A stretch of 41,938 nt of DNA from Candidatus Gottesmanbacteria bacterium RIFCSPHIGHO2_02_FULL_39_14 (GTDB taxonomy: Bacteria; Patescibacteriota; Microgenomatia; 2-02-FULL-39-11): contig MFJM01000006.1 in NCBI GenBank assembly GCA_001779205.1, positions 10,327 to 52,264 on the forward strand, read 5' to 3'. Shown in pieces: positions 2,994 to 38,144 of this stretch. The position numbers and the translations under genes were made by a program. Under the pieces are notes generated by a model. That model did not search any database. It was not told the origin of the DNA and saw nothing but the letters and a program-made list of their open reading frames with translations. Numbering within the stretch: position 1 is the stretch's first letter; each line of letters opens with the position of its first letter.

Positions 2994-3012
2994 TACTTTA
3001 ATTACACTGCTT

Positions 3013-4512: not shown

Positions 4513-4513
4513 T

Positions 4514-4840
4514 TTAGGGTCCCGGGATGGTGAAGATGGTAAGGGGCACACCAGTATAGAATTCAATTAACCTAAAAATGAGTACGGCCACAGCCATGAG
4601 AGCAATACCCATAACAGCATAGGTCATGGTTTGTTTGGCACTGGTTGCCGCCTTGGGATCACCTCCGGCTGTCAGGTAACGAAAACCGCCAACAACAAGC
4701 ATGACAAAAAGAGCAAGGAGACCGAGACTGATGATAACTGTCAAAATTTGTCTATAAATTCCTTCCAGACATTTGAAGGTAGGAACATCTACATCGCCGA
4801 TGGTTCTGATGCATTCAACTCCAGCCCATTCTTTATACAT
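4514..4840 (-). CDS. VirB2/TrbC-like pilin
   Basis: GGFRYLTAGGDPK...AKQTMTYAVMG between two hydrophobic helices. Confidence 0.8.
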   Translation of the reverse strand: MYKEWAGVECIRTIGDVDVPTFKCLEGIYRQILTVIISLGLLALFVMLVVGGFRYLTAGGDPKAATSAKQTMTYAVMGIALMAVAVLIFRLIEFYTGVPLTIFTIPGP

Positions 4841-5744: not shown

Positions 5745-5745
5745 G

Positions 5746-5817
5746 TGCCAGGGGAGAGGATCGAACTCTCGGCCGCCACGTTATGAATGTGGTGCTCTAC
5801 CACTGAGCTACCCTGGC
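5746..5817 (-). tRNA. tRNA with CAT anticodon (elongator Met more likely than Ile2); CCA not encoded
   Basis: GCCAGGG/CCCTGGC acceptor stem, TAGCTCAGTGGTAGAGC D-arm, TTCATAA loop, GAGAG-TTCGATC-CTCTC T-arm. Confidence 0.92.
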
Positions 5818-6253: not shown

Positions 6254-6326
6254 CGCGGAGTAGTGTACAGTTGCACAGGAGGCTCATAATCTCCTAGGCT
6301 AGGTGCGACTCCTAGCTCCGCAACCA
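6254..6326 (+). tRNA. Initiator-type tRNA-fMet (CAT), atypical
   Basis: CGCGGAG/CTCCGCA acceptor with C1:A72 mismatch, CTCATAA loop and encoded ACCA end. Confidence 0.88.
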
Positions 6327-6728: not shown

Positions 6729-7228
6729 GAATTAGAAAAGGTTAACTAAATGATATACAAAAGCTTGTATTTTTAGACCGTGCTGCTTACGGTGAGTATG
6801 GTGCAAACGAAGAATACTTTAAACAAAAGTTAACGTCTCCCAATACTCACGTATTAATTATTGAAAAAAGGAGTAAAGTTTCCGGTTTTACTGTTTTTTA
6901 ATTTATGGAACCACATCAAACACCAGAAAATTTCTCTGATTTACAATTAATGAAACCGATGAAAGGAAAATGGATGCATATCATTGCTTTTACAACAGAG
7001 ACTAATTATAAAGACATCCACGCAGATACCCGGCTTCTAAAAGCTGCTGAGAATTTAGCAAGAGAATTGAGATCTACTGTTTTTTGTGTTCCCTTAAGTA
7101 AAAATCATCCATATCCGGCTGCTTTTAATTTTTTTGAAGGAAATGGATATCAAAAAGTAGGTACAATTCAATGGTTGGCAAACTCTAACGAAAAAATTGA
7201 TTGCTACTTTTATAGCAAATCAGTATAG
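6725..7228 (+). pseudogene. GNAT-like acetyltransferase with two in-frame TAA stops
   Basis: ATG 6725 overlaps the GIY-YIG TGA and reads MRIRKG*LNDIQKLVFLD...VSGFTVF*FMEPH...AFNFFEGNGYQKVG in one frame. Stops are at 6743-6745 and 6899-6901. Confidence 0.7.
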
Positions 7229-7235
7229 AAAACAG

Positions 7236-7263
7236 GTTCTTATTTCTTCTAAGCCCCGCAACA
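7236..7263 (+). repeat. tRNA-3'-end-like repeat R1
   Basis: gttcttatttcttctaagccccgcaaca is 27/28 identical to 9962-9989. Its end resembles the tRNA-fMet end tagctccgcaac. Confidence 0.85.
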
Positions 7264-7269
7264 AAAATA

Positions 7270-7297
7270 AAAATAGCGTCTTACAAGGCGCTATTTT
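7270..7297. terminator. Hairpin terminator, near-identical to the one at 9054
   Basis: aaaatagcgtcttacaaggcgctatttt. Confidence 0.75.
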
Positions 7298-7336
7298 GGT
7301 AATTATAATCAAAAATTGATATACTTATATCATTAA

Positions 7337-8989
7337 ATGGAAGAAGGTTTTAAGCCGAACGATCAGAGTTATTTACTTCTTCAGGTAAATGACCTCGTAC
7401 CACTTCTGTCCGGATATGAGCAAAATACGATAGAAGTATTGCTCCAAAAAGCCAATTCGTGGCTTGCTTTGGATTCGCATAACTGGCGTAGTCCTGGTGA
7501 AAGGCGTCTGACTTCCCAATTTATGACACAACATTTTGCACAACGTTACCCACCGTAGGATGGGGTAGCCAAACAGAAATTGATAGATAAGTTATCATCG
7601 CCTTCGAGTCTGGATGAATTATTCTGGGAAGGGATTGACATTGATGCTGCGAATAATGCCGTTGATGAATTTAATGCACAGTTACCAAAAACCAAAAAGA
7701 AGTCAGGTCCGATAGAATTTGAGGAATTGGAAATACCTGCTTTTGTTCCAGAGAAAGCAGATACAGTAACATTTTATATCCATGCCTTACCCATTCACCC
7801 CGATCTGATTGAAGCTGAATATTATGCGCCTGAATTCCCCAAAAATCTAATTAACAAAAACGTCTTATTCTACTTACTGTTCCATTCAAAAGATATTTTG
7901 GATCAGCTACCCAATTTGAAGATGGTTACAGACTATTTTTGGTCTCGTTTTCCCGGATATATTGCTTATCAAGGCGAGATTGACAGAAATATTCCGGCAA
8001 GCATCAAGGGAGAGCAAATAAGATCAGAATACCGACGTATCCGCACCGATACATCTGAAATTTATAACCGTTTGGGCAAAATAGATGGCTTAATTTTGCA
8101 AGACAGAACTGATGATGGAGTTCGCGAGATGGTTATGCGTCTATCAGCTTCGGCAGAAGAAGGTGAAGAGTGGTTAAGGATTGCGGGAACCACTTTATTT
8201 AGTCTTGTGCTCAATTCTTCTGAAATCGATAGGTTTTTTAAAGATCCCGAAGTTAAGAATCGGGAATATCTAGCTTGGAAGAAGATTTCTTCCGATCAAC
8301 TGAAAGTGATCGTTGCAACCAATCGGTTATTGCGGACGATTGATGCTAAAAATCCTAGTGATATGCTCACACCGGAGGAATTGAAGTCTCTGACTGATTT
8401 CATCCCCTATATCGGCTATTTGTTCGATGAAAGTGATGAACGGGAAATAATGGAGGCAACGGGTTTGCTGACGAACCTTTTTACCGGCCAGAATATTGAC
8501 AAGCGGTCGGAAATTGCAGCAATACTCTTCCAAAAATTGACGGCAGCAAGAAATAAATACTGTCAACAAGGGAGGCTTCGCAGCCAAATTCCTGGTGCTG
8601 AAAACGAAGTTGTTCCCTTATCTCCCGAAGATGTTCTTTATCAGAAAATACTTAATTTGATAAAACAATATCCTCAGAAAATCGGCTTACTCAAAAGTGC
8701 TGATTATGACTTATGGAGAATTGGCAATACCGTTGAGTTTATAAATGAAATATTGGTAATCGAGCTGCCCGGATCCTCTCCAGGGCTAAAACCGGTCATT
8801 GATCGTATGGCAGCCTTATCTAAGGAAGAACTGTCGAAATTCAAGCCTAAGGAATATGTTGAAGACCCGGAGATCGTCCAATTGGAAATCGCCTTTTCAA
8901 ATCCTCCAGGTTCCATTTCGAATTTTATTGGATCAATCCCGACATCTCAAGCTTGGGCGGTTTTTGCCGAAGCAAATAAGGAAAAGTAA
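7337..8989 (+). pseudogene. ~550-aa hypothetical protein split by one in-frame TAG
   Basis: ORFs 7337-7558 and 7580-8989 share a frame. Only TAG 7556-7558 interrupts it (RYPP*DGVAKQKLIDKL). Confidence 0.65.
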
Positions 8990-10126: not shown

Positions 10127-10372
10127 ATGTGGTTTGTCTATATACTGCTGTGCAAGGATAGGAGCTTATATACGGGTGTTTCCAACAATCCACAAAAACG
10201 ATTTTCAGATCATCAAACCGGTAAAGGCAGTAAGTATACAAGATCATTTAAAGCAAAAAGTATTGTCCATCTTGAAAAGTACATGACCAAATCAGAAGCG
10301 CTAAAAAGAGAAAGACTGATAAAAAGTTGGAGCCGAGAAAAGAAAATCAGAATATTAAATCTAAAAATCTGA
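10127..10372 (+). CDS. Small GIY-YIG nuclease (UPF0213/YhbQ-like)
   Basis: WFVYILLCKDRSLYTGVSNNPQKRF.DH..GKGSKYTR...ALKRE..IK.WSREKK. Confidence 0.9.
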   Translation: MWFVYILLCKDRSLYTGVSNNPQKRFSDHQTGKGSKYTRSFKAKSIVHLEKYMTKSEALKRERLIKSWSREKKIRILNLKI

Positions 10373-10386
10373 TTATTTCCAAAATT

Positions 10387-11409
10387 ATGATTAAGGCAAA
10401 AAAACTGTATTTCTATTTATTGTTGACGATACTTCTTCATGGTTGTCTCTTTTTTTATAAATACTACCAGACTGCGAATATTCAGCAGGATAACTATGTC
10501 GGGTATGCGAAGGCATTTAAAACAGAATCATTTATAAGCAATATCTCTGAGGACGATAGCAGACTATTTCCCGGTTTACCGCTGTTAATCTATATATTTA
10601 ACTTCTTAACCGGAAGTGAAAATACAGCCGGCTTGTTTTTATCATTTCTAAGCCTGTTAACAATTTTTTTGTTTTCAGTACACTTTACAAAAAACACTTT
10701 TTATGCATTTTGGATTACTGTTTTCCCGCCCATCATATTTGAACAAACAAGTAAAATCAGTACCGAAGCAATAACAATTGCTCTTTTTATCATCAGTTAT
10801 TACCTCATTATAAATAAAAAATACCGATTCAGTGCGCTTCTGCTTGGATTTGCCTCAATTGTCCGATTGATCAGCATAAGTATGTTTATAGGGCTTTTAA
10901 TTTTATTATTCAGGCGGAAAAAATATATTTTATTGGTACAAAGCAGTGTATTTTATATGCTATTTCCTCTTTTCATGCTGGTATTTAATTTCTTTCACTG
11001 GGGATGGGGGGGCATTTTCAGACAAATAACGATGAATCAGATTGTCGGTAGGGGAACATTAACGCCGGTACAACTCATTAATGATATATTGCGGACAATT
11101 TCTTGGAAGCAACCTCAAATACTTATTTCCGGAATGGTTAACATTATTCTTTTTTTCTCGGTATTTTATAGTTGTATCAGATATAAAAATGATTTCTTAA
11201 ATTCAGGTGATCAATTATTGGTCAAGGTCTGGGCCATACTTTCTTTAATATTAGTTTTTTCTATCGGACCAACTCCTTTCTTGGAAGAAGCAAGCAGATA
11301 TCTGATAGTTATTACAACACCATTACTCCTTTTTATGTTTCAAAGACTGCTTAAGCATAAAAGGCTTCTTATTGGCTCTTTGATTCTAAGCATTTTTGCA
11401 TTTATCTAA
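10387..11409 (+). CDS. Multi-TM protein, probable GT-C glycosyltransferase
   Basis: QDNY...A, RLFPGLPLLI, STEA and late RY motifs with about 9 TM segments. Confidence 0.6.
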   Translation: MIKAKKLYFYLLLTILLHGCLFFYKYYQTANIQQDNYVGYAKAFKTESFISNISEDDSRLFPGLPLLIYIFNFLTGSENTAGLFLSFLSLLTIFLFSVHFTKNTFYAFWITVFPPIIFEQTSKISTEAITIALFIISYYLIINKKYRFSALLLGFASIVRLISISMFIGLLILLFRRKKYILLVQSSVFYMLFPLFMLVFNFFHWGWGGIFRQITMNQIVGRGTLTPVQLINDILRTISWKQPQILISGMVNIILFFSVFYSCIRYKNDFLNSGDQLLVKVWAILSLILVFSIGPTPFLEEASRYLIVITTPLLLFMFQRLLKHKRLLIGSLILSIFAFI

Positions 11410-13212: not shown

Positions 13213-13464
13213 ATGAATTGGATTACTACGAATATCAGATTTCCTGAAGATATTTATATGGAATTAAAGATGGAAGCCGCACGTAAGCGCCGAAGTATTG
13301 CTGATATTGTGAGAGAAAGCGTAGCTAAAAGAAAAAATATTATGGGAATAACTAATGTAGAAAAATTTTTAAAAAAAGCCGATAAAATAGCAAGAGAAAT
13401 CAGCAGACAAAATAAAGGTAAAAGCTTATCTAAGGCTCTAATTGAGATGAGATACGAACAATGA
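13213..13464 (+). CDS. Ribbon-helix-helix antitoxin (VapB-like)
   Basis: TTNIRFPEDIY.ELK.EA....RSIADIVRESV; ATGA overlap with the PIN gene. Confidence 0.8.
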   Translation: MNWITTNIRFPEDIYMELKMEAARKRRSIADIVRESVAKRKNIMGITNVEKFLKKADKIAREISRQNKGKSLSKALIEMRYEQ

Positions 13465-13886
13465 TTGTTGTAGATGCTTCAGTAGCAATTAAGTGGATCG
13501 AGAAAGAAGAGGATAGTGAAAAAGCTGTTTTATTACAAAAATCTCATTTGTTAAAGCAAAACGAGATTATTGTTCCCCAGTTAATTTATTTTGAAATTGC
13601 GAATACATTATCCACGAAATCTAAAGTTGAAGAAAAGTATATAGAGTTGGGAATAAACATAGTTTATAACACTGATTTGAAAATTGAACAGTTAGAGAAA
13701 GTTGATCTTTTAAAAGCGTCAAATCTAGCAAAAAAGTATAAAACTTCAGTTTACGATATGATTTATGCTGTTGTGGCAAAAAAATACGATACTATACTTA
13801 TCACTACAGATGAGAAATTTATTCAGAAAACAAAATTTTCTTATGTTAAATTATTAAGTGAATATACTGCCGGCACAAAAACTTGA
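13461..13886 (+). CDS. vapC: PIN-domain toxin (VapC family)
   Basis: VVDASVAIKW...E...YD..Y...A......LITTD. Confidence 0.9.
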   Translation: MIVVDASVAIKWIEKEEDSEKAVLLQKSHLLKQNEIIVPQLIYFEIANTLSTKSKVEEKYIELGINIVYNTDLKIEQLEKVDLLKASNLAKKYKTSVYDMIYAVVAKKYDTILITTDEKFIQKTKFSYVKLLSEYTAGTKT

Positions 13887-13917
13887 CAGATATGGTAAGA
13901 TAAGAGGAAATTGATAA

Positions 13918-14162
13918 AGGCGATGATGGCGTAAGGATGGGACGCCGGAGCTGACCCTAATAAGGTACGGAGGCGAAACCGTAAAAGACAGTAACATGTG
14001 TCGCGAAAGCGGAGCATGTCATGAATGAGGTTAACTCATTTCGGATATGTGTCCCCGCGAGGGGACTTTTTAATGGGTTAACGAAATAAGGTGGCACAGC
14101 GAAAGTAATTTCGCCCTTGAATTCCCAGAATATTATTTTCGGGAAAAGGAGGGCGTTTTTTT
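13918..14162 (+). promoter_or_regulatory. Trp-specific T-box riboswitch leader
   Basis: Antiterminator AAGG-TGGCACA-GCGAAA...TTTCGC-CCTT at 14088-14118. Competing terminator at 14112-14162. GA-motif Stem I with TGG at 13938-13940. TTGACA at 13883. Confidence 0.9.
14112..14162 (+). terminator. T-box terminator that also sequesters the trpE SD
   Basis: cgccctt..ttccc...gggaa..gagggcg followed by T7 immediately before ATG 14163. Confidence 0.85.
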
Positions 14163-15533
14163 ATGGAAAATATTTTTCAAAATATAAAGCTAGGCTCCTA
14201 TCAAGAGAAGGAAGTGGATTTATCCATTTCCGCTTTCGAAGTATTTAAGCGGCTTTATCCTTATTCGAAAAATATATTTTTGTTGGAATCATTAGGAGAA
14301 GAGGGCAAATACAACCGCTTCTCTTATGTAGGTTATGAACCGGAATGCGTAATTTCAGGTTTAAATGGAGAACTGATTGTTAATAACAGACTATTTAAGA
14401 GCGCAAATCCTTTTGAAAATTTAAAGATTTTTTCCAGATTTAGTAGCGCAGGCCGCGATTTCTGTGGAGGCTTGGTCGGCTATTTTTCTTATGAAGCGGC
14501 TGCCTTTTTTGAGCCTGGTTTTCCGCCAGCTAACAGAGCGGAAAAGCATGAATTTCCGGATTTTCAGTTCGGATTATATTTTGATGGATTGAAGTTCGAT
14601 AAGAGGGGGAAGAGATGTACTTACTTTCATTACGGGAATTCCAGATTAGACCAAATAATGAAAATAATAAATAAAACAAACGGAAATTTGGGACGATTTT
14701 CATATAAAACGATAAAAAATCCGGATGAGAAGGAACACCGATTTAAAGTAGAACATGCCTTGGAAGAAATTAAGAAAGGGAATATTTTTCAAGTGGTTCT
14801 ATCAGAGAGAACTGATTATCAAATCGATGGTGATAACAGGAGAATTTATGCAGTATTACGGCAGGTGAACCCTTCGCCATATATGATCTATCAGAAATTT
14901 GATATGAGGGAGATTATTTCGGCAAGTCCGGAACTACTTATTAGAGTCAAAGGAAGAAAGATTGAACATTTCGGAACACTAGCCGGGACCATAAAAAGGG
15001 GGAAAGACCAGGAAGAAGATGAAAGGTTAAGAGAAAGACTCATTGGCGATGAAAAGGAATTGGCCGAACATTTCATGCTAGTTGATTTAGCCAGAAATGA
15101 TGTCGGTAAGGTGGCCCGCTTCGGGACAATCACGGTAGACAAACTTTCGACAGTCAAGAAATTTTCCAAGGTGCAACATTTATACAGCGAGATAAGAGGA
15201 GAGCTACAAGGGCGGCGGAATTGTTTTGATGCTATTGCTGCCTGTTTTCCGGCGGGGACTTTGACTGGAGCGCCAAAAGTTGAGGCAATGAAGATAATCA
15301 GCAAGCTTGAAGAGATGCGCCGCGGGCCTTACGGAGGAGTAGCTGGATATTTTTCTTTTAACGGAGAGGTGATGCTGGCAATAATTATAAGATCGCTGAT
15401 GATTTGCCGAAATTATGCCTATACGCAAACTGGTAGCGGAATTGTGGTTGATTCTGTTCCAGATCGCGAATTTCAGGAGATAGTCAATAAACAAAATGGA
15501 ATGGATGAGACATTAAGGAGGGCTTCCTTATGA
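14163..15533 (+). CDS. trpE: Anthranilate synthase component I
   Basis: LLES, NPSPYM, SASPE, AGT..RG, EH.MLVDLARND and FPAGTLTGAPK motifs. Confidence 0.95.
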   Translation: MENIFQNIKLGSYQEKEVDLSISAFEVFKRLYPYSKNIFLLESLGEEGKYNRFSYVGYEPECVISGLNGELIVNNRLFKSANPFENLKIFSRFSSAGRDFCGGLVGYFSYEAAAFFEPGFPPANRAEKHEFPDFQFGLYFDGLKFDKRGKRCTYFHYGNSRLDQIMKIINKTNGNLGRFSYKTIKNPDEKEHRFKVEHALEEIKKGNIFQVVLSERTDYQIDGDNRRIYAVLRQVNPSPYMIYQKFDMREIISASPELLIRVKGRKIEHFGTLAGTIKRGKDQEEDERLRERLIGDEKELAEHFMLVDLARNDVGKVARFGTITVDKLSTVKKFSKVQHLYSEIRGELQGRRNCFDAIAACFPAGTLTGAPKVEAMKIISKLEEMRRGPYGGVAGYFSFNGEVMLAIIIRSLMICRNYAYTQTGSGIVVDSVPDREFQEIVNKQNGMDETLRRASL

Positions 15534-16105
15534 AAACATTGATAATCAATAATTACGATTCTTTCACTTATAACCTCTATCAGTATTTAGGGGAACTCGG
15601 CGGCAATCCGCAAGTGTTCCGCAATGATGAGATAACTTACACAGAGATAGAAAAGAAAAAATACAGCCATATCGTAATTTCTCCGGGGCCGGGAGATCCA
15701 TCCGATAAGCATTATTTCGGCGTCTGCCGGGAAGTGATATTACGCCCTGATAAAAATATTCCAATATTGGGAGTGTGTCTGGGACATCAGGGAATTATCC
15801 ATTATTACGGGGGCAGGATTGTTAGGGCCGGAAAGATATTACACGGAAAGAAAAGCAAAATTACTCATAACGGGGACGGAATTTTTAAGGAAGTTAAAAG
15901 CCCCCTATTGGGCATGCGCTACCATTCGCTTGTTGGTGAGAAAGAAACGATACCTGATGTTTTGGAAATTACCGCAGAAACGGATGATGGTGTTGTGATG
16001 GGAGTGGCACATAAACAAATACCAATTTTTGGAATTCAGTTTCATCCGGAGTCGGTGGGGACGGAAGACGGGAAAAAAATATTAAAGAATTTTTTAGAGT
16101 TTTGA
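15530..16105 (+). CDS. trpG: Anthranilate synthase component II (glutamine amidotransferase)
   Basis: NYDSFTYNL, SPGPG, GVCLGHQ, RYHSL and QFHPES motifs. Confidence 0.95.
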   Translation: MKTLIINNYDSFTYNLYQYLGELGGNPQVFRNDEITYTEIEKKKYSHIVISPGPGDPSDKHYFGVCREVILRPDKNIPILGVCLGHQGIIHYYGGRIVRAGKILHGKKSKITHNGDGIFKEVKSPLLGMRYHSLVGEKETIPDVLEITAETDDGVVMGVAHKQIPIFGIQFHPESVGTEDGKKILKNFLEF

Positions 16106-16138
16106 ACGTATAGTCCCGAATTAATCGGGATCACGTTC
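16104..16138. repeat. Intergenic hairpin (REP-like) between trpG and trpD
   Basis: gaacgt..tcccga-attaa-tcggga..acgttc. Confidence 0.6.
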
Positions 16139-16146
16139 TAAAAAAC

Positions 16147-17184
16147 ATGGAAGCACAAGAAATTTTAGAAAAATTAATAAACAGAACAGATTTAACAAAA
16201 CTTCAAAGCACGATACTTGCCGAAATAATTTTCTCCGAGGACGTACAGGCGAGTATAAAAGCGGCACTGTTGACTGCTTTAAGGATGAAAGGGGAGTCTG
16301 TGTCTGAAATTCTGGGATTTATTGAAATCATCAGAAAAGCAATGGTGAAAGTGAAGATAGATGATTTAGCGATTGATACCTGCGGCAACGGTGGAGATAA
16401 CCAGAATACTTTTAATATTTCAACGGCAGCGGCGATTGTGGCAGCAGCCTGCGGGGTGAAAGTGGCCAAACACGGCAACCGCAACATTTCGTCAAAAAGC
16501 GGAAGTGCTGATGTTTTGGAAGCAATGGGAGCAAGAGTTGATTTGACGGCAAAAGAGGTGGAAGACAGCCTTAATTTCTCCAATTTCACTTTTATGTTTG
16601 TGCCTAATTTCCATCCGATTTTCAAAAATATCGGACTTTTGAGGCGTGAGCTTAGAATAAAAACAATTTTCAATTTGCTCGGGCCGCTGGTTAATCCGGC
16701 AGGAGTGAAGCGGCAGATTATCGGCAGCGGAAGCAGGGAGGCGGCGGAAATATTAAGTAAGGTCGTGCAAAGACTTGATAATGAGCATATTCTAGTAGTT
16801 CATTCTTTTGAGGGAATGGATGAGATTAGCATATATGAGCCGACACAAGTATTTGAGATTAGAGGAAATAGAATTAAAAAATTTGTCATAAAACCAGAGG
16901 AATTCGGTTTGAGAGGAAAGGATGCAAACAATATAAGAGTCAATTCCATTGAGGAGAGTAAAGTTAAATTAACAGAGATACTTGAGGGGAGTTTTGGCGA
17001 TGCGAGAAAAATTGTTCTATTTAATTCCGCGGCTGCACTTTATGTTGGAGGACGATGTCGAAGTATTGCCGAAGGAATTAAATTTGCCGAGAAAGCAATA
17101 GACGAAGGACTAGCATATGCAGAACTTAATAAATTCATAGAGTTTAGTAAAAAAGTGAGGATGCAAAATGATCAACATATTTAA
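16147..17184 (+). CDS. trpD: Anthranilate phosphoribosyltransferase
   Basis: DTCGNGGD..TFNIST, KHGNR..SSKSGSADVLE, FNLLGPL.NP and G.DE motifs. Confidence 0.95.
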   Translation: MEAQEILEKLINRTDLTKLQSTILAEIIFSEDVQASIKAALLTALRMKGESVSEILGFIEIIRKAMVKVKIDDLAIDTCGNGGDNQNTFNISTAAAIVAAACGVKVAKHGNRNISSKSGSADVLEAMGARVDLTAKEVEDSLNFSNFTFMFVPNFHPIFKNIGLLRRELRIKTIFNLLGPLVNPAGVKRQIIGSGSREAAEILSKVVQRLDNEHILVVHSFEGMDEISIYEPTQVFEIRGNRIKKFVIKPEEFGLRGKDANNIRVNSIEESKVKLTEILEGSFGDARKIVLFNSAAALYVGGRCRSIAEGIKFAEKAIDEGLAYAELNKFIEFSKKVRMQNDQHI

Positions 17185-17839
17185 AAAAATATTAGAGGTG
17201 AGGAAATTCATTCTTATGGCTGAGATAAAAATAAAATCACCATCGGAAGGAGCATTGGGCGGGATGGAAGAGATGGAGGAAATTGCTAAAGAATATACGG
17301 ATGGGGGAGCGGATATGATTTCGGCAGTGACAGAACAAACGCATTTCGGAGGAGATTTGGGGATGATAGATAGAATAAAAAGAGTGAGCAGTTTGCCGAT
17401 TCTTTGCAAAGATTTTATTTCGGATGAAAGAGAGCTAGTTGATGTTAAAGAGCATGGTGCTGATGCTGTTTTATTATTGGTAATGTATGTATCTAAGGAG
17501 AAGTTAGTAGTGCTTTTTGACAGTGCGTTGAAAATGGGACTTGTTCCAATAGTAGAAGTTGATAACGAAGTTGACCTTAACATGGCAGTAAGAGAAAAAT
17601 TTCCGGTGGTGGCGGTTAATGCCAGGAATTTAAGGGATTTGTCGGTTGACAGAAAAAAGGCAATTTCATTGATTAGAAAAATTCCTCAAAAAGTAATTGC
17701 CCTGGCGTTTTCCGGAGTAAGAGATAAGGAAGATGTGAAAAATTATTTAAAAGCCGGAGCAAAGGGAGTGCTTATCGGGACAGTGCTAATGCGGGCAAAG
17801 GATAAGGTTTCGATGTTAAAGGAGTTGAGGGGTGTATGA
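17168..17839 (+). CDS. trpC: Indole-3-glycerol-phosphate synthase
   Basis: AEIK.KSPS.G, TE..HFGG, PIL.KDFI, GADAVLL, VEV and N.RNL motifs. Confidence 0.93.
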   Translation: MINIFKKILEVRKFILMAEIKIKSPSEGALGGMEEMEEIAKEYTDGGADMISAVTEQTHFGGDLGMIDRIKRVSSLPILCKDFISDERELVDVKEHGADAVLLLVMYVSKEKLVVLFDSALKMGLVPIVEVDNEVDLNMAVREKFPVVAVNARNLRDLSVDRKKAISLIRKIPQKVIALAFSGVRDKEDVKNYLKAGAKGVLIGTVLMRAKDKVSMLKELRGV

Positions 17840-18453
17840 AGACATTGATTAAGATTTGCGGAATAAAGGATTTGGCGGAGGCCGGAATGGCAATTAAGAA
17901 TGGGGCTGATATTCTGGGATTTAATCTTGTTAAGACTTCAAAGCGATACATTGAGCCAAAAGTGGCTAAAAATATAATCAAAAAAATAGACAGGAGGAAA
18001 GTAGAGATTGCGGGTGTGTTTCAGAATGAAGAGAAGGAGAAAGACATTGAAATAACTGATTTTTTAAAATTGGATTTAGTTCAGTTACATGGAGAAGAAG
18101 AGCCAGAAATATACAGGAGGTTAAAGACAAAAATAATTAAAGTTTTTCCGGTGGAAAGAGACTTTGATGTGGATAAACTTTTATTAGAAATGAAACAAAG
18201 TAAAGCAGATTTTTATCTTTTAGACAGGAGAAATCAGGGGAGCGGGGAAAGAATTGATGTGGAAAAGGCGAGAAGAGTTGCAGAGAAATTTTCATTATTT
18301 TTGGCCGGAGGATTAAATCCCGAAAATGTCAAAAAGGTTGTCGAGAAAGTTAAGCCGTATGCAGTTGATGTGGCTTCGGGGGTGGAAAGCGGCGGGCGAA
18401 AAGACATGCTAAAAATTCAAAAATTTATCAGAATGGTCAGATCAATATCATGA
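17836..18453 (+). CDS. trpF: Phosphoribosylanthranilate isomerase
   Basis: KICGI, VQLHG.E, LAGGLNPENV and DVASGVE motifs. Confidence 0.95.
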   Translation: MKTLIKICGIKDLAEAGMAIKNGADILGFNLVKTSKRYIEPKVAKNIIKKIDRRKVEIAGVFQNEEKEKDIEITDFLKLDLVQLHGEEEPEIYRRLKTKIIKVFPVERDFDVDKLLLEMKQSKADFYLLDRRNQGSGERIDVEKARRVAEKFSLFLAGGLNPENVKKVVEKVKPYAVDVASGVESGGRKDMLKIQKFIRMVRSIS

Positions 18454-19631
18454 GAAAGATCGATACAAAAGTAAAAAACGGTTATTTCGGTAAATTCGGA
18501 GGGCAGTTTGTGACAGAATTGCTTTATTCGGCATTGGAAGAGCTGGGAGAAGTATTTACGAAAATTAAGGAAGACCGTGAATTTCTTAAAACTTATATAA
18601 GCTTAGTGGAGGATTACGCGGGCAGGCCGACGCCTTTGTATTCAGCGGAAAATATTTCCAGGATAGTCGGCTCGCGAGTTTATTTTAAACGGGAAGATTT
18701 GCTAAATGGAGGGTCCCACAAACTTAATAATTCATTAGGCCAGGCATTAATGGTGAAATTTTTAGGAAAGAAGGAAATTGTTACTGAAACGGCGGCAGGG
18801 ATGAACGGAGTGGCGACAGCAATGGCGGCAACTGTGGCGGGATTAAAATGTAAAGTTTTTATGGGAGTCAAGGATATTGAGAGACAGAGATTGAATGCTG
18901 ATAAAATAAAACTTTTAGGTGCGGAAGTAGTTCCGGTCGAAAGAGGTTTTGGAGTCTTGAAAGATGCTGTGTCGGAAGCGCTTGTTTATTGGATTAGGAA
19001 TCTGACAACATGCCATTACCTGATCGGATCGACGGTCGGTCCACATCCATTTCCTTCAATTGTTGCTTTTTTCCAAAAGATAATCGGTGATGAGGCAAGG
19101 CGGCAGATTTTTGAGAAAGAAGGAAAGTTGCCTAGCCATATTATAGCCTGCGGTTCAGGCGGGAGTAATGCTATGGGAATTTTTCAAGCATTTATCGATG
19201 ATCCGGTAGAATTGATTTTTGTTGAAGGGGCGGAGTCGGCGGCATTAACAAAGGGTACGGTCGGAATATTTCAGGGAACAAAAACTTATGTTTTACAGGA
19301 TGAGTTTGGGATGGACAGAAAGACGGAGAGCAGGGCAGCGGGACTTAATTATCCGGGAAGAAGTCCGCAGATTGCCTATCTTTATTCTATCAGAAGAATA
19401 AAAGCGGAAACTGCAACTGACCAGGAGGTAATTGAGGCATTTTATAAAACGACAAAACTAGAAGGACTAATGCCGGCTTTTGAAACCTGTCATGCAATGG
19501 CATATTTATTCAGAAGTAAGGGAAAATTCCGAAAAAAAGATATTGTGCTTTTGAATTTTTCAGGAAGAGGAGATAAGGATATGGCAGCTGCGCTGCAAGG
19601 CAGAAAGTTCATAAAGTTTATAAAGTTATGA
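18450..19631 (+). CDS. trpB: Tryptophan synthase beta chain (divergent)
   Basis: GYFG.FGG, GRPTPL, KREDL...SHK.NN, GPHPFP, GGSNA and SGRGDKD motifs. Confidence 0.92.
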   Translation: MRKIDTKVKNGYFGKFGGQFVTELLYSALEELGEVFTKIKEDREFLKTYISLVEDYAGRPTPLYSAENISRIVGSRVYFKREDLLNGGSHKLNNSLGQALMVKFLGKKEIVTETAAGMNGVATAMAATVAGLKCKVFMGVKDIERQRLNADKIKLLGAEVVPVERGFGVLKDAVSEALVYWIRNLTTCHYLIGSTVGPHPFPSIVAFFQKIIGDEARRQIFEKEGKLPSHIIACGSGGSNAMGIFQAFIDDPVELIFVEGAESAALTKGTVGIFQGTKTYVLQDEFGMDRKTESRAAGLNYPGRSPQIAYLYSIRRIKAETATDQEVIEAFYKTTKLEGLMPAFETCHAMAYLFRSKGKFRKKDIVLLNFSGRGDKDMAAALQGRKFIKFIKL

Positions 19632-20398
19632 ATATTAAGAAAATATTAATGACGCATTTTTATTACGGGGATGTAAGTCCGGAATTTTCGGAAGATTTGG
19701 CTATGAGACTTATTAGTTCCGGGTCGGATATTCTGGAAATAGGAATTCCATATAGCGACCCGGTTTGCGACGGACCTGTTTTTCAAAAGTCATGCAGGCA
19801 GGCACTTGAGAATGGTATTACTCCTATGACAGTTTTAGCAGGAATAAAAAAAATCAGAGAAAAAACAATTAAACCAATATACTTAACAAGCTACTTTGGT
19901 CCTGTTTTCAAGTTGGGGGTGGAGAGATTTTTGAAAATGGCAGATGATACGGGAGTAAATGGACTAATAATTCCTGATTTGCCATTGGAGGAGCAAGAGA
20001 ATTTTTCAGATATTTTTAACAAATACAATTTGTCTATAATCCAATTTGCAACTGTTTATTCAGACCAAGGGCGGCTGGAGAAAATAATTAATAAATCCAA
20101 TGATTTTATTTACGGCATTTCTCATTCAGGGGTAACAGGGGATAGAGGCAATGAAAGGGAGATTCAAGATTTGATAGTTAAAATTAAAAACTTAACCGAT
20201 AAAAAAATATATTGCGGATTCGGGATCAAAACGGCAATGGATGCTAAGAAGATTATTGATTTAGGCGCAGACGGAGTAATTGTAGGAAGTGCGATTGCCG
20301 AGATTTATCAAAATAGTAAAGACCCGCAGAAAAGTTTAGAAGAAATTGAAGATTTAGTTAGAAATATTCAAAAAAAAGTTAAACTGATTATAATGTAA
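19628..20398 (+). CDS. trpA: Tryptophan synthase alpha chain
   Basis: EIGIPYSDPVCDGP, PDLP.EE, GVTG, GFGI and ADGVIVGSA motifs. Confidence 0.95.
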   Translation: MNIKKILMTHFYYGDVSPEFSEDLAMRLISSGSDILEIGIPYSDPVCDGPVFQKSCRQALENGITPMTVLAGIKKIREKTIKPIYLTSYFGPVFKLGVERFLKMADDTGVNGLIIPDLPLEEQENFSDIFNKYNLSIIQFATVYSDQGRLEKIINKSNDFIYGISHSGVTGDRGNEREIQDLIVKIKNLTDKKIYCGFGIKTAMDAKKIIDLGADGVIVGSAIAEIYQNSKDPQKSLEEIEDLVRNIQKKVKLIIM

Positions 20399-20412: not shown

Positions 20413-21927
20413 ATGGATGAAGCAGTTAAAAAATATCTTAATGAGTTAAAAGAGCTGGGGATAGAATACCAGATTTTGGAGCATCCCCAGCTTATTTCCG
20501 TGGAGAAAGTCCAGGAATATCTGGGGTACAGAATGGATGATGCCGGAGCGACACTACTGATGAAAACGGATGATAAGTTTGTAGCCATTATAAAGAGGGG
20601 CGATACTAAACTGGATAATGAAAAAATAAAGAAATATTTGGGAGTAAAAAACTTGAGGATGGCAACGGAGGAGGAATTCGAGAAGATTACACATGTACCG
20701 AGCGGAGCAGCAACGGTTTTTATTAAGGGAGTACCAATATATCTTGATAAAAAGATATTGGAGAAAGAGTATATCAATGCAGGAAGCGGGAGTTTACTGA
20801 TTACACTGCGGTATAAAACAGACGATTTTAAAAAAATCCCAGGGATTAAAATCGTTGATTTTACAAAAATTGAAACTGATAAAGAAGATTTAGGGAAAGT
20901 TATTAAAGGAGGAAAAAGAATTCTTTCCGGTATTACACCGTCGGGTGATGGAAGTCTTCACATAGGTAATTATTTGGGGGCGGTGAGGCAGTTTAAAGAA
21001 CTGGCGAAGAATAATGAGTGTTTCTTGTTTGTGGCTGATATTCATGCGTTAACGACAGTTCAGAGTAGAGAAGAATTACAGAAGAATATTGAGATTTTGA
21101 TTATAAATGAATTGGCTCTGTTGGGTGAATTGTCAAATATCACTTTTTTCAGACAATCGGATGTTCCTATGCATACGGAATTACAGTCAATACTCAATAA
21201 TGTGACACCATTGGGATTGATAAAAAGGGCTCATGCTTATAAGGATAAACTGCAGAAGGGGTTAACCGAGGAAGAGATGAACATGGGACTTTTTTGTTAT
21301 CCGATTCTGATGGCGGCGGATATATTAATTTATAAACCGGATATTGTTCCTGTGGGACAGGATCAGAAGCAGCATTTGGAGATAACCAGGGATATTGCCG
21401 AAAATTTTAATAAAACCTACAGAAAGAAAGTTTTTCCATTACCAGAATCACATATTCCCAAAGAAGTAGCAGTTATTATGGGAACAGATGGGAAGAGGAA
21501 GATGAGCAAATCGTTGGGGAATATTATCAGTATATTTGATGACGAAGCGATTATTAAAAAACAGGTAATGTCGACTTATACCGATCCGACCAGAAAACAC
21601 GCAATAGATCCTGGGCATATTGAGGGGAACATGGTATTTACATATTTGGACTTCTTCGGAAAAAAGAAAAGAGTTGAAGAGTTGAAAAGTTTATATCGAG
21701 TGGGGAAAGTGGGGGATGTAGAGGTAAAAAATTTTCTGTTAAAGACATTGATTAAATATTTTGCTCCGGCACGAGAGAGATACCAAGAGTTAAAATCCAA
21801 TCCGCAAAAGGTGAGAAAAATCCTCATGGAGGGGTCGGAGAGAGCCAGGGAAGTGGCAAGCACAACAATGGTGGAAGTCAGGGAAGCTGTGGGGTTGACT
21901 AATAAATACTCTTTCTTCGAATATTAA
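20413..21927 (+). CDS. trpS: Tryptophanyl-tRNA synthetase with N-terminal YbaK/ProX-like domain
   Basis: SGITPSG..HIGNY.GA, YPILMAADIL, VPVG.DQ.QH.E and KMSKS motifs. The first ~150 aa look YbaK-like. Confidence 0.93.
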   Translation: MDEAVKKYLNELKELGIEYQILEHPQLISVEKVQEYLGYRMDDAGATLLMKTDDKFVAIIKRGDTKLDNEKIKKYLGVKNLRMATEEEFEKITHVPSGAATVFIKGVPIYLDKKILEKEYINAGSGSLLITLRYKTDDFKKIPGIKIVDFTKIETDKEDLGKVIKGGKRILSGITPSGDGSLHIGNYLGAVRQFKELAKNNECFLFVADIHALTTVQSREELQKNIEILIINELALLGELSNITFFRQSDVPMHTELQSILNNVTPLGLIKRAHAYKDKLQKGLTEEEMNMGLFCYPILMAADILIYKPDIVPVGQDQKQHLEITRDIAENFNKTYRKKVFPLPESHIPKEVAVIMGTDGKRKMSKSLGNIISIFDDEAIIKKQVMSTYTDPTRKHAIDPGHIEGNMVFTYLDFFGKKKRVEELKSLYRVGKVGDVEVKNFLLKTLIKYFAPARERYQELKSNPQKVRKILMEGSERAREVASTTMVEVREAVGLTNKYSFFEY

Positions 21928-21972: not shown

Positions 21973-22004
21973 TTGACAGATTACAGTATGTATGGTAGTA
22001 TGAT
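21973..22004 (+). promoter_or_regulatory. TA promoter
   Basis: TTGACA-N17-TAGTAT with an extended TG. Confidence 0.55.
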
Positions 22005-22010
22005 TAGAGT

Positions 22011-22301
22011 ATGGATACAAATATTGTCAGTACAACTGAATTGCAGAGAAATATTAAATCTGTTTTGGACAAACTCAACGATAATAATGAACCTCTGATT
22101 GTAGTGCGGGATAGTAAACCTAAGGCTGTTATGATGCCATATAGTGAATATAAAAGGTTGTCTAGCTTGGAAAAAGAAGTAATTAGGCTGCAGATGGAAA
22201 AAGTATGGGAAAAAATGAGGATTATAAATAAAAATGTATCAGATAAAGAACTTAATAAAGATATTGAAGAAGCGATAAAGTATGCCAAGAATGGTCGTTG
22301 A
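22011..22301 (+). CDS. Phd/YefM-family antitoxin
   Basis: VSTTELQRN...VLD.L.....PLIV.RDSKPKAVMM...EY. Confidence 0.88.
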   Translation: MDTNIVSTTELQRNIKSVLDKLNDNNEPLIVVRDSKPKAVMMPYSEYKRLSSLEKEVIRLQMEKVWEKMRIINKNVSDKELNKDIEEAIKYAKNGR

Positions 22302-22707
22302 CACGAATGTTTTGATACGAGCACTTCTTAAACCCGATAGCAGTGACGGATTAGTAATAAGGAGAGCAGTTGAGGGTAAACTAGATTTATTTTTCAGTCT
22401 AAAACTAATTACAGAATTAAAAAGGACGCTTACTTATAAAAGGATAAGAAAGCGGGCGGTTACTAATGATGATGTTAAGATATTTCTGAAAACTCTTCTA
22501 ACATTTGGTAATATTACTTCCATAACAGAAAAAATTAATTTATGCCGGGATCCTGATGATAACGAACTGTTATCAATCGCAGTTTCAATTTATAAAGATA
22601 GTCCTGTATATTTAGTTACTGCTGATAAAGATTTACTGGTATTAAAGGGGAAAATAGAAAAAGTAATGATTGTTACACCCCAGGAATTTTTGAGGCTGAG
22701 GAAGTAA
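22282..22707 (+). CDS. PIN-domain toxin (PIN_3/TIGR00305-like)
   Basis: VVDTNVLIRAL, CRDPDDN..L..A, LVTADKDLL and TPQEFL motifs. Confidence 0.9.
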   Translation: MPRMVVDTNVLIRALLKPDSSDGLVIRRAVEGKLDLFFSLKLITELKRTLTYKRIRKRAVTNDDVKIFLKTLLTFGNITSITEKINLCRDPDDNELLSIAVSIYKDSPVYLVTADKDLLVLKGKIEKVMIVTPQEFLRLRK

Positions 22708-22754: not shown

Positions 22755-23093
22755 ATGAAAAAGGATGAAATCAGTTTGTCTGACTTCCAGAAGATGGATT
22801 TAAGAGTAGGGAAAGTGATTAGTGCTTCCGCGATCGAAGGATCAATTAACCTTCTTCGACTTAAAGTGGACTTGGGCTACGATTACGGAGTTAGGCAAAT
22901 TATTTCGGGTATTGCCCGATGGTACAAACCTGAAAAATTACGGGGCAAAAAATTCATATTTTTGGCAAATTTGGAGGGGAAGAAACTGATGGGAAATAAG
23001 AGTGCGGGAATGATTTTATGCGCTGATGAGAACCACTCTGCATTTATAATTCCCGTTGATAATAAAATTCCCGAAGGAACGTTAATCAGGTAA
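22755..23093 (+). CDS. Stand-alone OB-fold tRNA-binding protein (Trbp111/CsaA/MetRS C-terminal-like)
   Basis: DF.KMDLRVGKV, LL.L.VDLG, RQIISGI, NL..KKLMG..S.GMIL and P.GT.IR motifs. Confidence 0.9.
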   Translation: MKKDEISLSDFQKMDLRVGKVISASAIEGSINLLRLKVDLGYDYGVRQIISGIARWYKPEKLRGKKFIFLANLEGKKLMGNKSAGMILCADENHSAFIIPVDNKIPEGTLIR

Positions 23094-32344: not shown

Positions 32345-33175
32345 TCAGTATTCTAGCACAGCAATACAGCCTTTAATTACACTTTTTTTCTCAATAATTT
32401 TCATCTTCTGGTTAGGAAAAATCTCTAAAGATGCTTTACCTGAATCAAAGCGCAGTCGCCATTTCTTATCTTTTAATACTTGAGTGACAAATTTCAGTCC
32501 GTTGCCTCTTTTTTCAGCAAATCTACCTGAAATAACCTGAGTAAAGGCGATTTTCAATGCATGACGATCAGCGGATACTTGAGGAATGACATTTCTGATA
32601 GTTTTTAATATTCCCTGTCCGCGATCAGCAAGAACAATAATTTTTTGATTATCATCATGAGCAAAAAATATTCCAGGAATATCCGGCCATTGACCCAAGT
32701 TATGATCGAAGGAATTATTACCGATTTCTCCGGCCAAAGCAGTTACCAGATATGCTACGATTCCCAACTTTTGTTCAAGATGTTGCGAAAAAGTCTGCAG
32801 ACGAACTTGAAAAACATCACGTGTTTGGCAATATAAATCAGGGGATGTTTGGAAAGGAGAGGATTTTGTTACCCATGAAAATCCTTTTTGGACAATGTTT
32901 TCAGACATATCAATAGTTGTTTTTTTCATAAAGGTTTTTAGCGTATTAAACAAAACTGATTGCTGATTTATTTTATAATAGACCAGTCTTCCTTTTCGAT
33001 AACTTTGGAATAAACCAATCTTTGTTAGAGCAATAAGCTCCCTTCTGATATTTCCAACGCTCACGGACAATTTTCTTTTTAACTGGTGCAAGTAATAATC
33101 TTGATCCGGACGGGAAAGAAACTGCTCAAGAATTTTGCGTCTGGTTTTTGATTTAGTGAGGCTAAATATATCCAT
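32345..33175 (-). CDS. ArsR-type wHTH fused to a HATPase (GHKL)-like domain
   Basis: SKTRRKIL..F...P..DYYL...REL..L..IGL; EIGNNSFDHN (N box), DRGQG (G1) and RGNGLKFV (G2). Start at ATG 33175. Confidence 0.75.
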   Translation of the reverse strand: MDIFSLTKSKTRRKILEQFLSRPDQDYYLHQLKRKLSVSVGNIRRELIALTKIGLFQSYRKGRLVYYKINQQSVLFNTLKTFMKKTTIDMSENIVQKGFSWVTKSSPFQTSPDLYCQTRDVFQVRLQTFSQHLEQKLGIVAYLVTALAGEIGNNSFDHNLGQWPDIPGIFFAHDDNQKIIVLADRGQGILKTIRNVIPQVSADRHALKIAFTQVISGRFAEKRGNGLKFVTQVLKDKKWRLRFDSGKASLEIFPNQKMKIIEKKSVIKGCIAVLEY

Positions 33176-33181
33176 GGTTAT

Positions 33182-33210
33182 ATTGTAGTCAATACTGACT
33201 ACAAAGTCAA
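33182..33210 (-). promoter_or_regulatory. Leaderless promoter with a perfect inverted-repeat operator
   Basis: TTGACT-N17-TACAAT-N6-ATG; ttgtagtca-atac-tgactacaa at 33183-33204. Confidence 0.7.
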
Positions 33211-33258
33211 ACGGCCGATCAGATCCCCCGGACAATGAAGAAGCTGATTCTGGGGTGA

Positions 33259-34104
33259 TTATAAGAAATTCAGAAGGATTATTCCAAATATACAAAGAAG
33301 TGAGCCGATGAGCTTCTTAGCGATATGTTTCCTTTCACCCATAAACGTAATTCCCATAAAAGATGTTGAAAGAAGAAATGCCGTTTCGTAATTGGTGTTG
33401 GCAATGGAGATATTTCCTTTCGCGAAAGCCCAATTAATAAGATAAAAACCCGTTACAGCAGTAAAGCGGGAAAGAATTATCTTCTTTTTATATTTGGTAA
33501 ATATTGGTTTTAGATCCTGGTAAGACTGAGGTATTAACAGGAGAATAATGACAAGAGATAGCTGGCTTAGAAAGACAACGGTTATCGGATTGAAGTAAAA
33601 AAGCGCAAGCTTTCGAAAATAAGCAAGAGCTCCCATGAGAATTCCACTTGCCAGAGCTAAGTAGAAACCTGTGGATGGATTAAGCTTTTTTCCTTCATAG
33701 AAAATAACTAAAATGCCTGAAATTATACTCAAAATGCCAATAGTATTTAAATAAGTTATTTTTTCATGAAGAAATAATATTCCACTTAGAAAAACAATTA
33801 TCAGACTAGACCGGGAAAGAATATTAATATTCGAGATATCTTCAGTTTTGTAAGCCTTTATGAGAAACAGATTTCCTAAAAATATAAAGAGAGTCGGGGT
33901 AAACAAATAAAAATAAGCAATTGGTTCTTTGACAAACGATCCGTATAATATAAAAGGACCAGTATAAAGGATTAAATTAAGACCAATTTGGAGCAAAAAA
34001 TAAGAAAAAGCAGAATACTTTTTCTCGGTGATGTTTTTATTAATTGACTCGGTGATGCCCCAAAGAGTGCCGGCGAGAAGTGCTACCAGATAAATAAAAA
34101 TCAT
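33259..34104 (-). CDS. EamA/DMT-family transporter
   Basis: About 10 TM helices; two repeats ending FLHEKI and FMGERK. Confidence 0.85.
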   Translation of the reverse strand: MIFIYLVALLAGTLWGITESINKNITEKKYSAFSYFLLQIGLNLILYTGPFILYGSFVKEPIAYFYLFTPTLFIFLGNLFLIKAYKTEDISNINILSRSSLIIVFLSGILFLHEKITYLNTIGILSIISGILVIFYEGKKLNPSTGFYLALASGILMGALAYFRKLALFYFNPITVVFLSQLSLVIILLLIPQSYQDLKPIFTKYKKKIILSRFTAVTGFYLINWAFAKGNISIANTNYETAFLLSTSFMGITFMGERKHIAKKLIGSLLCIFGIILLNFL

Positions 34105-38135: not shown

Positions 38136-38144
38136 TAAGATAAT

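Follow-up and report, generated by a model that had tools for sequence, protein, structure and literature searches.

An INS/YbaK-fold domain without the family lysine, fused to tryptophanyl-tRNA synthetase in a Patescibacteria trp operon

A trpS gene with an INS-type N-terminal domain

We analyzed a stretch of 41,938 nucleotides from the uncultured environmental bacterium Candidatus Gottesmanbacteria bacterium RIFCSPHIGHO2_02_FULL_39_14, a member of the Candidate Phyla Radiation (CPR; GTDB lineage Bacteria; Patescibacteriota; Microgenomatia; 2-02-FULL-39-11), which corresponds to positions 10,327-52,264 on the forward strand of contig MFJM01000006.1 (assembly GCA_001779205.1). This whole stretch is called the window below; coordinates are positions within it, P-numbers denote homologous proteins, and L001-L004 denote related loci of this analysis. 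The window carries a trpE-G-D-C-F-B-A-trpS series, the last gene of which (20413-21927, + strand) encodes a tryptophanyl-tRNA synthetase (TrpRS) preceded, in the same reading frame, by an INS/YbaK-fold domain. TrpRS and tyrosyl-tRNA synthetase (TyrRS) are textbook synthetases without editing domains, and INS-type domains are regarded as partners of the class II prolyl-tRNA synthetase (ProRS) that depend on one conserved lysine. A TrpRS-INS fusion hints at an undescribed quality-control or tRNA-handling module.

The fusion gene is a single uninterrupted open reading frame (ORF) of 504 codons plus stop, as an earlier note on this DNA, made from the sequence alone, had described it; the ORF starts with ATG and has zero internal stops, and the window contains no N. 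Pfam places both expected domains within this one ORF, among them the PF04073 match on which the note had let its claim stand or fall: PF04073 (tRNA_edit) at residues 24-141 (E = 3.3e-22, 79.3 bits versus a cut-off of 25.5, covering profile positions 1-122 of 123), again returned for the N-terminal domain by a search of the ESM Atlas, and PF00579 at residues 169-450 (E = 1.7e-59). The NCBIfam model TIGR00233 (trpS) matched residues 168-495 with 286.4 bits against a cut-off of 176.75, which identifies the protein as a bacterial TrpRS equivalog whose core begins at about residue 168, where the note had put it. The YbaK equivalog TIGR00011 was not reached (whole protein, 31.4 bits; N-domain, 34.5 bits; cut-off, 153.25), and the fusion protein gave weak NCBIfam matches to proS and YbaK models. 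We divide the protein into an N-terminal domain of residues 1-152 (20413-20868, +; supported by the structure model, Foldseek, and the domain tree), a linker of residues 153-167 (20869-20913, +; supported by low model confidence and the start sites of stand-alone relatives), and a TrpRS catalytic core with anticodon-binding helices at residues 168-504 (20914-21924, +). Thermus thermophilus TrpRS (2el7) aligns along the full length of this core (E = 2.6e-75), and the HIGN, GQDQ, and KMSKS motifs are all present. An internal start that would yield a stand-alone TrpRS was considered and ruled out: Codons 150-172 contain no ATG, GTG, or TTG, so that translation has no separate start site for the TrpRS half, and the TrpRS of this organism is made only as the fusion.

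The N-terminal domain has the YbaK/ProX fold that the note had proposed. An AlphaFold2 model of residues 1-165, built on an alignment of 28 free-standing relatives, reached a mean predicted local distance difference test score (pLDDT) of 94.7 and a predicted template modeling score (pTM) of 0.87, and Foldseek returned 37 matches to it in the PDB at E <= 0.001. The template modeling (TM) scores were 0.82 for T. thermophilus ProX (2z0k/2cx5), 0.81 for APE2540 (1wdv), 0.78 for Haemophilus influenzae YbaK (1dbu), 0.77 for the Escherichia coli protein (2dxa), and 0.68-0.72 for the INS domains of ProRS. For the full-length protein, modeled from an alignment of 51 sequences, the pLDDT was 90.5 overall, above 87 in both domains, and below 50 at residues 155-163, with a pTM of 0.66; this pattern indicates two folded domains on a flexible linker and no confident interface between them.

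Both hallmark motifs of the superfamily are altered, as the note had read from the letters AGATLL and SGAATV. Ala46 (codon 20548-20550, +) occupies the column of the conserved lysine in six PDB chains (5znj AKT, 3op6 AKT, 2j3l IKS, 1wdv VKT, 2cx5 VKS, and 2dxa YKT), and G98-A-A-T-V102 (20704-20718, +) aligns to the GxxxP loop (GAMPP, GGVPP, GGISP, and GSLGP in the structures) with the glycine retained and the proline replaced. This lysine is described as a hallmark of the INS family in the excerpts of PMC10164551 and PMC11286415 that we used. Among 98 fused homologues with a complete N-domain (see below), the lysine column holds Ala in 70, Ser in 18, Pro in 7, Thr in 3, and Lys in 0; G98 is kept in 97 of the 98, and position 101 is Ser in 39, Pro in 35, and His in 10. 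P25, R62, D64, G98, D112, G126, and D138 are each retained in 96-98 of these proteins and T47 in 89, and basic residues are conserved at K51, K61/R62, K71, K73, and K141. The N-domain is clearly under purifying constraint, although its mean identity to the query, 52%, falls short of the 71% of the core. Small residues abound in the three pocket segments (A44-G-A46, G98-A-A, and G124-S-G-S). K51 falls on a lysine column in human ProX (8huz) and lies at +5 from position 46, the same spacing as that of K50 relative to K45 in Caulobacter crescentus ProXp-ala, where K50 is, in the excerpted text of PMC10164551, an acceptor-stem contact.

Recurrence of the fusion and a lysine-less clade of INS domains

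The fusion recurs widely among relatives. We surveyed the 120 best homologues listed and found the N-domain in 100 of them (98 complete and 2 N-terminally truncated), the remaining 20 lacking it. The architectures comprised YbaK-TrpRS (50 proteins), YbaK-TrpRS-tRNA_bind (31), YbaK-YbaK-TrpRS (12), YbaK-YbaK-TrpRS-tRNA_bind (7), TrpRS alone (19), and TrpRS-tRNA_bind (1), and Pfam scans of example proteins bear these out. In one protein, P0129, the order is reversed, with a YbaK-type domain at residues 371-488 (Pfam), i.e., C-terminal to TrpRS. Where sources are named, they are Candidatus Gottesmanbacteria, Roizmanbacteria, Microgenomates, and the Patescibacteria group, and the homologues, already public, carry the plain database name tryptophan--tRNA ligase. 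A locus search seeded with the N-domain alone yielded a thin context sample of four loci: Fused ORFs could be read straight from the DNA of L001 and L003, the ORF of L002 ends at a contig edge after the N-domain, and L004 holds a free-standing YbaK-like gene of the ordinary Lys-bearing kind, without a trpS in its vicinity. An assembly or gene-calling artefact that joined two genes, which the note had named as a possible undoing of its claim, can be given practically no weight: The ORF contains no stop, N, or internal start, the identical protein (P0001) occurs on 12 contigs, the fusion is common to about 100 homologues of several origins in many independent assemblies, and the fused frames of L001 and L003 are present at the DNA level. 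Such recurrence goes far past what chance would give, and no faulty join accounts for it.

In evolution, the appendage has been labile. A tree of TrpRS cores (IQ-TREE, quick mode, LG+G4) intersperses unfused proteins with fused ones and requires at least 12 fused/unfused changes, 7 of which are forced by starred branches for the unfused group. The sister of the window TrpRS is itself unfused (P0064; 85% core identity, support 96), and the unfused proteins start 1-8 residues ahead of the KRILSG core boundary. This scatter indicates that the appendage is accessory and was repeatedly gained, lost, or split.

To place the domain within its superfamily, we turned to relatives of the N-domain alone. 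A phmmer search against 1.84 billion representatives gave 806 matches at E <= 1e-3, 58 of them at E <= 1e-10, and we surveyed the lysine column in the 152 domain instances of the best 150 proteins of these 806 matches. The lysine was kept in 97 instances, 86 of which are in proteins shorter than 200 residues, 11 in longer proteins, and none on a TrpRS-like core. It was lacking in 49, of which 13 sit on a TrpRS-like core, 32 in proteins shorter than 200 residues (some of them fragments), and 4 elsewhere; in 6 instances the column was gapped. TrpRS-like cores were thus seen with 13 of the 49 Lys-less and 0 of the 97 Lys-bearing instances. In a FastTree phylogeny of 257 domain instances, 152 Lys-less ones fell into one group (support 90) with three types. 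Type A (88 rows, support 100, stem length 0.57) includes the window domain, 73 N-terminal fusions, 14 domains counted as free-standing, and the C-terminal fusion of P0129. Type B (24 rows, support 97) consists mostly of the second copy of tandem proteins and keeps the GxxxP motif as GYVSP, and type C (38 rows) includes domains fused to bacterial TyrRS. Of these TyrRS fusions, P0242 matches TIGR00234 with 291 bits and P0275 is named tyrosyl-tRNA synthetase by its source; a search for TyrRS fusions gave 3 clusters. A word-indexed search for free-standing relatives returned 6 proteins of 90-289 residues, mostly fragments. Judged from the sampled data, the Lys-less state appears to define a whole PF04073 clade that is tied to TrpRS and, rarely, to TyrRS.

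Within this clade, tandem proteins pair different Lys-less types, namely A with B in 17 of 20 cases and a type-C-like first copy with B in 3 of 20. The two copies are therefore different paralogues rather than recent duplicates, and the retention of such heterotypic tandems argues against decay of the domain.

The clade also differs from its Lys-bearing relatives at a second site. Of 163 Lys-less instances, 147 have Arg or Lys at position 61; none of the 94 Lys-bearing instances does, and the residue there is mostly Leu, Val, or Ile. Position 62 is basic in 156 of 163 versus 22 of 94. These counts include near-duplicates and sets seeded with the window protein. In the window, the pair is Lys61-Arg62 (codons 20593-20598, +), a candidate relocated positive charge. 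According to DSSP, residues 44-51 and 56-62 form consecutive strands with a short turn between them in both models, and a regular hairpin would set residue 61 across from residue 46, on the same face. Six "GAAR"-type rows of type A lack the basic residue at 61; five are proteins shorter than 200 residues and the sixth is the C-terminal domain of P0129, and all six have Arg at loop position 101.

These clade-level features bear on one alternative, an ordinary ProRS-related trans-editing domain acting on Ala- or Cys-tRNA-Pro and fused to TrpRS just for co-expression. It draws on the sequence matches, since the INS domains of ProRS are the best PDB hits of the N-domain (5znj, E = 1e-9) and the weak proS and YbaK matches point the same way. 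We nevertheless regard it as very improbable: The TIGR00011 scores stay at 31-34 bits against a cut-off of 153, the lysine that all characterized members need is missing, and a tie between clade and TrpRS that holds in both orientations and in tandem is not explained by chance fusion. The window contains neither a ProRS gene nor dtd, the gene for the D-aminoacyl-tRNA deacylase (DTD).

There are also other fusions of PF04073 domains. A Lys-bearing domain is joined to an archaeal-type TyrRS in P0191, another stands at the C terminus of a non-discriminating aspartyl-tRNA synthetase (AspRS) in P0180, and further PF04073 domains are fused to a D-Ala-D-Ala carboxypeptidase (P0215) and to RuvX (P0171).

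Candidate functions of the appended domain

We tentatively favor, with a little less than even confidence, the reading that the domain is a rewired deacylase, i.e., a cis-acting module on the acceptor end of (aminoacyl-)tRNA-Trp that is probably still hydrolytic. In the fusion protein, a flexible linker of 15 residues joins an INS/YbaK-fold domain of ~150 residues to a bacterial TrpRS that is itself complete, and on this reading the lost lysine (Ala46) would be replaced by the basic pair K61-R62 on the neighboring strand of the hairpin. The pocket would still accept the CCA-3' end, so that the domain would act in cis on the tRNA-Trp acceptor end, with the tRNA held by the TrpRS body. Hydrolysis of mis-made aminoacyl-tRNA-Trp would be its most likely activity, which amounts to proofreading through a rewired active site. 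The architecture, the fold, the motif changes, the membership in the clade, the constraint, the lability, and the operon setting are shown by the data; we infer the spatial swap between positions 46 and 61, the binding of the CCA end, the action in cis, and the hydrolysis. Four lines of evidence lead us to favor a deacylase: the free-standing members of the clade (14 of the 88 type A rows), for which an enzyme fits better than a passive tether; the strong conservation of the pocket segments; the upkeep of two tandem paralogues; and chemistry that relies on the 2'-OH and the backbone. On the last point, the excerpts of PMC10164551 propose that the conserved lysine (K45 in ProXp-ala, K279 in E. 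coli ProRS) steers A76 via the C75-A76 phosphate, with catalysis driven by the A76 2'-OH and the lysine serving substrate accommodation; if so, a relocated charge could suffice.

Nearly as likely is a non-catalytic role, in which a pseudo-editing domain only adds affinity or positioning for the acceptor arm of tRNA-Trp and acts beside a fused or adjacent Trbp111-like tRNA_bind module on the smallest synthetase. This would fit the alteration of both hallmark motifs, given that Lys-to-Ala abolishes editing in the INS members tested (as far as the excerpted reports go), the flexible tether, the repeated gain or loss of the appendage, and the conserved basic residues K51, K61/R62, K71, K73, and K141. 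It would also fit the tRNA_bind domain (PF01588), which is C-terminal to TrpRS in 39 of the 120 relatives and is encoded just downstream of the fusion gene in the window and at L001. There is, moreover, a precedent: The cytosolic TrpRS of Plasmodium falciparum likewise carries an N-terminal editing-type domain on a linker, which is AlaX-like and is proposed, in the excerpts of PMC3680381 and PMC3240968, to serve tRNA binding and not editing. That domain has the AlaX/ThrRS-type fold rather than the INS fold and sits on a eukaryotic-type TrpRS, and the same excerpts describe the AlaX-like-TrpRS fusion as unique to alveolates; it arose independently of the INS-TrpRS fusion. Set against a purely binding role are the free-standing clade members, which as mere binders of CCA ends would be competitive inhibitors, the pocket-forming T47, G98, and G126, which are among the best-conserved positions, the retention of heterotypic tandem copies, and the basic residue at 61, which resembles compensation for a pocket function. 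The earlier note had posed a choice between a domain that edits with a new specificity and an appendage without catalysis that binds tRNA or regulates; this is still the right choice to pose, and the regulatory branch has gained no support of its own.

Several observations weigh against the rewired deacylase. TrpRS is not known to have a misacylation problem. The appendage is dispensable, as 20 of the 120 homologues, including close kin such as the sister P0064, do without it, and the full-length predicted model, at a pTM of 0.66, defines no docking of the N-domain to the TrpRS core. The charge swap amounts to essentially one clade-level event, counted in a sample with near-duplicates, and where the lysine was lost independently outside the clade, in ten cases, position 61 is not basic (P0166, P0219, P0220, P0221, P0243, P0254, P0260, P0190, P0195, and P0229); the adjacency of residues 46 and 61 is itself derived from DSSP strings rather than from coordinates. 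In the tree, the Lys-less superclade has a FastTree support of 90 on a branch that is not starred, and some of the proteins shorter than 200 residues that were counted as free-standing may be fragments. The proline of GxxxP is missing in the domain type of the window, and the C-terminal tRNA_bind domains in 39 of 120 relatives, together with the Plasmodium precedent, point to plain tRNA binding. Finally, in the excerpts of PMC10164551, a Lys-to-Ala change strongly impairs deacylation in every INS member tested.

The window domain shares with characterized INS domains the fold (TM 0.78-0.82), the PF04073 match, the glycine of the loop, the lysine at +5 (K51), and the topology, but it lacks both the lysine, which is described as strictly conserved, and the GxxxP proline, has the basic residue at 61 that is seen in 0 of 94 Lys-bearing relatives, and is fused to a class I synthetase. 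According to a 2024 review (PMC11295145), INS members are single-domain proteins, the INS domain of ProRS excepted. A close architectural parallel is the ProXp-ala-ProRS fusion of trypanosomatids and Plasmodium, in which an INS domain likewise stands N-terminal to a synthetase via a linker. There, the partner is the cognate class II enzyme and Lys and GxxxP are kept, whereas in the window the partner is a class Ic TrpRS and both motifs are changed; according to excerpts of PMC11286415, that fusion deacylates better than the free domain, and the known synthetase fusions of the INS fold are with ProRS. Our searches of the accessible literature found no description of a YbaK/INS-TrpRS fusion, although the chapter that defines nine INS clusters (Kuzmishin Nagy 2020) may mention one. 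The Lys-less INS branch is previously uncharacterized and may coincide with one of the uncharacterized clusters ProXp-7, -8, or -9.

A bolder version of the favored reading holds that the Lys-less INS clade is a true hydrolase with a Lys-independent mechanism, the first dedicated proofreading module of class Ic synthetases, which clears tRNA-Trp (or, in the TyrRS fusions, tRNA-Tyr) charged with D-amino acids or analogues. We consider this rather unlikely. TyrRS, TrpRS, and AspRS form D-aminoacyl-tRNAs that are cleared by DTD, and these three synthetases are those for which we found INS-like fusions. The comparison is functional only, since the DTD fold is unrelated to INS and the AspRS-fused domain and one TyrRS-fused domain keep the lysine; in the accessible literature, no paper was found that treats D-Trp, DTD, and TrpRS together. 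If the bolder version were true, TrpRS products would need editing in some lineages, the analogues could include products of TrpB or TrpB2 accepting substituted indoles, and quality control of the DTD type would be replaced or supplemented in these ultrasmall bacteria.

The family is large and natural, with the INS fold placed on TrpRS in three ways, N-terminally, in tandem, and C-terminally. An active domain would bring a new editing specificity with a variant catalytic layout and would lead one to ask which substrates the TrpRS of these organisms mischarges, and an inactive one would show cleanly, in bacteria, how an editing fold is recruited for tRNA binding, in parallel to the AlaX-TrpRS of Plasmodium. 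Either way, a branch is added to the catalogue of the INS superfamily, and the two outcomes are directly testable by synthetase biochemistry.

Operon setting and neighboring genes

The fusion gene ends a complete biosynthetic operon. Upstream of it, trpE, trpG, trpD, trpC, trpF, trpB, and trpA (14163-20398, +; Pfam) are tightly packed or overlapping, with trpB matching TIGR00263 at 469.5 bits against a cut-off of 392. The trpA stop lies 14 nucleotides from trpS; a Shine-Dalgarno-like AAAGGA is present, and nothing resembling a terminator was found between the two genes, a position that agrees with the co-transcription with Trp biosynthesis suggested in the note. The complete trpEGDCFBA operon lies in a Microgenomates/CPR-looking genome; CPR genomes, to our knowledge, usually lack amino-acid biosynthesis.

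A T-box-like leader precedes trpE (13914-14121, +). It matches RF00230 over model positions 1-219 with 49.5 bits (E = 4e-10), below the gathering threshold of 93; only a stub with a UGG in it is left of Stem I, and the sequence of the T-box bulge is UGGC, which presumably fits a G73 discriminator, as in bacterial tRNA-Trp. Right before the ATG of trpE lies a hairpin (14113-14154) followed by a run of seven U (together 14113-14162, +); the 3' arm of the hairpin overlaps a Shine-Dalgarno-like AAGGAGG. The minimum free energy of the fold is -22.1 kcal/mol (z = -2.1), and 7 of 200 shuffled sequences fold at least as well. A second terminator-like hairpin (14051-14066) lies within an insertion in stem III of the T-box model, and a further PIN gene (13461-13886) is found just upstream of the leader. 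At L001-L003, Rfam found no leader RNA.

The related loci show a different link to tryptophan. At L002 (270-2223), the fusion gene follows a TrpB2-type gene (NF009057, 667 bits). At L003 (3008-6702), a gene for a TrpR-like repressor, a TrpB2-type gene (692 bits), and a 132-residue SerK/SbnI-like fragment precede the YbaK-TrpRS gene. TrpB2 uses O-phosphoserine, and both loci have the look of a unit in which the salvage of indole is coupled to the charging of Trp. The fusion is thus linked to Trp supply at all three loci with upstream sequence (the window, L002, and L003), three being the whole of this sample.

Such linkage would suit a further possibility, namely that the domain is a small-molecule sensor that tunes TrpRS when free tryptophan, or some metabolite related to it, occupies the pocket; the three pocket segments rich in small residues would suit this as well. 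We rate it as improbable, since operon linkage is equally expected for any trpS, the conserved basic residues and the co-occurring tRNA_bind module fit RNA better, and we know of no ligand sensor with the INS fold.

The tRNA_bind module is present in the window as a separate gene of 112 residues (22755-23093, +), downstream of trpS and ahead of ftsH, that encodes a free-standing Trbp111/CsaA-like protein (PF01588, E = 5.7e-24, 84.5 bits versus a cut-off of 27). It shares 60% identity with its orthologue at L001 (2014-2352, directly after trpS) and 37-42% with the C-terminal domains of P0030 and P0100. The fusion of tRNA_bind to the C terminus of TrpRS in 39 of 120 relatives is a Rosetta-stone link between the two genes. 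The module belongs to the same family as Trbp111, CsaA, and the C-terminal domain of MetRS, and its match to the MetRS model TIGR00399 (metG_C_term), at 114.3 bits, stays just under the cut-off of 116.65. Here, it is linked to TrpRS and not to MetRS or PheRS, and in the window it is separated from trpS by an intervening Phd/YefM-PIN toxin-antitoxin pair (22011-22707, +; PF02604, PF13470). This pair is outside the trpS system. It has a promoter-like site of its own (21973-22001; TTGACA, a 17-nucleotide spacer, and TAGTAT) and is missing at the syntenic L001, where trpS, a 44-nucleotide gap, tRNA_bind, and ftsH follow one another.

Elsewhere in the window, ARAGORN predicts two divergent tRNA-Met genes (CAT) about 440 nucleotides apart at 5745-5817 (-) and 6254-6326 (+); Rfam, run at its gathering threshold, recovers just one of them (5745-5817). 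Five ORFs of 316-533 residues have no Pfam match at E <= 1e-5 (1560-4566, -; 7580-8989, +; 10327-11409, +; 32345-33295, -). A Fic/DOC gene is followed by a gene for an ATP-dependent DNA ligase of archaeal/eukaryotic type at 37089-39920, and L003, too, has a Fic gene (7014-7997), a short way downstream of the fusion.

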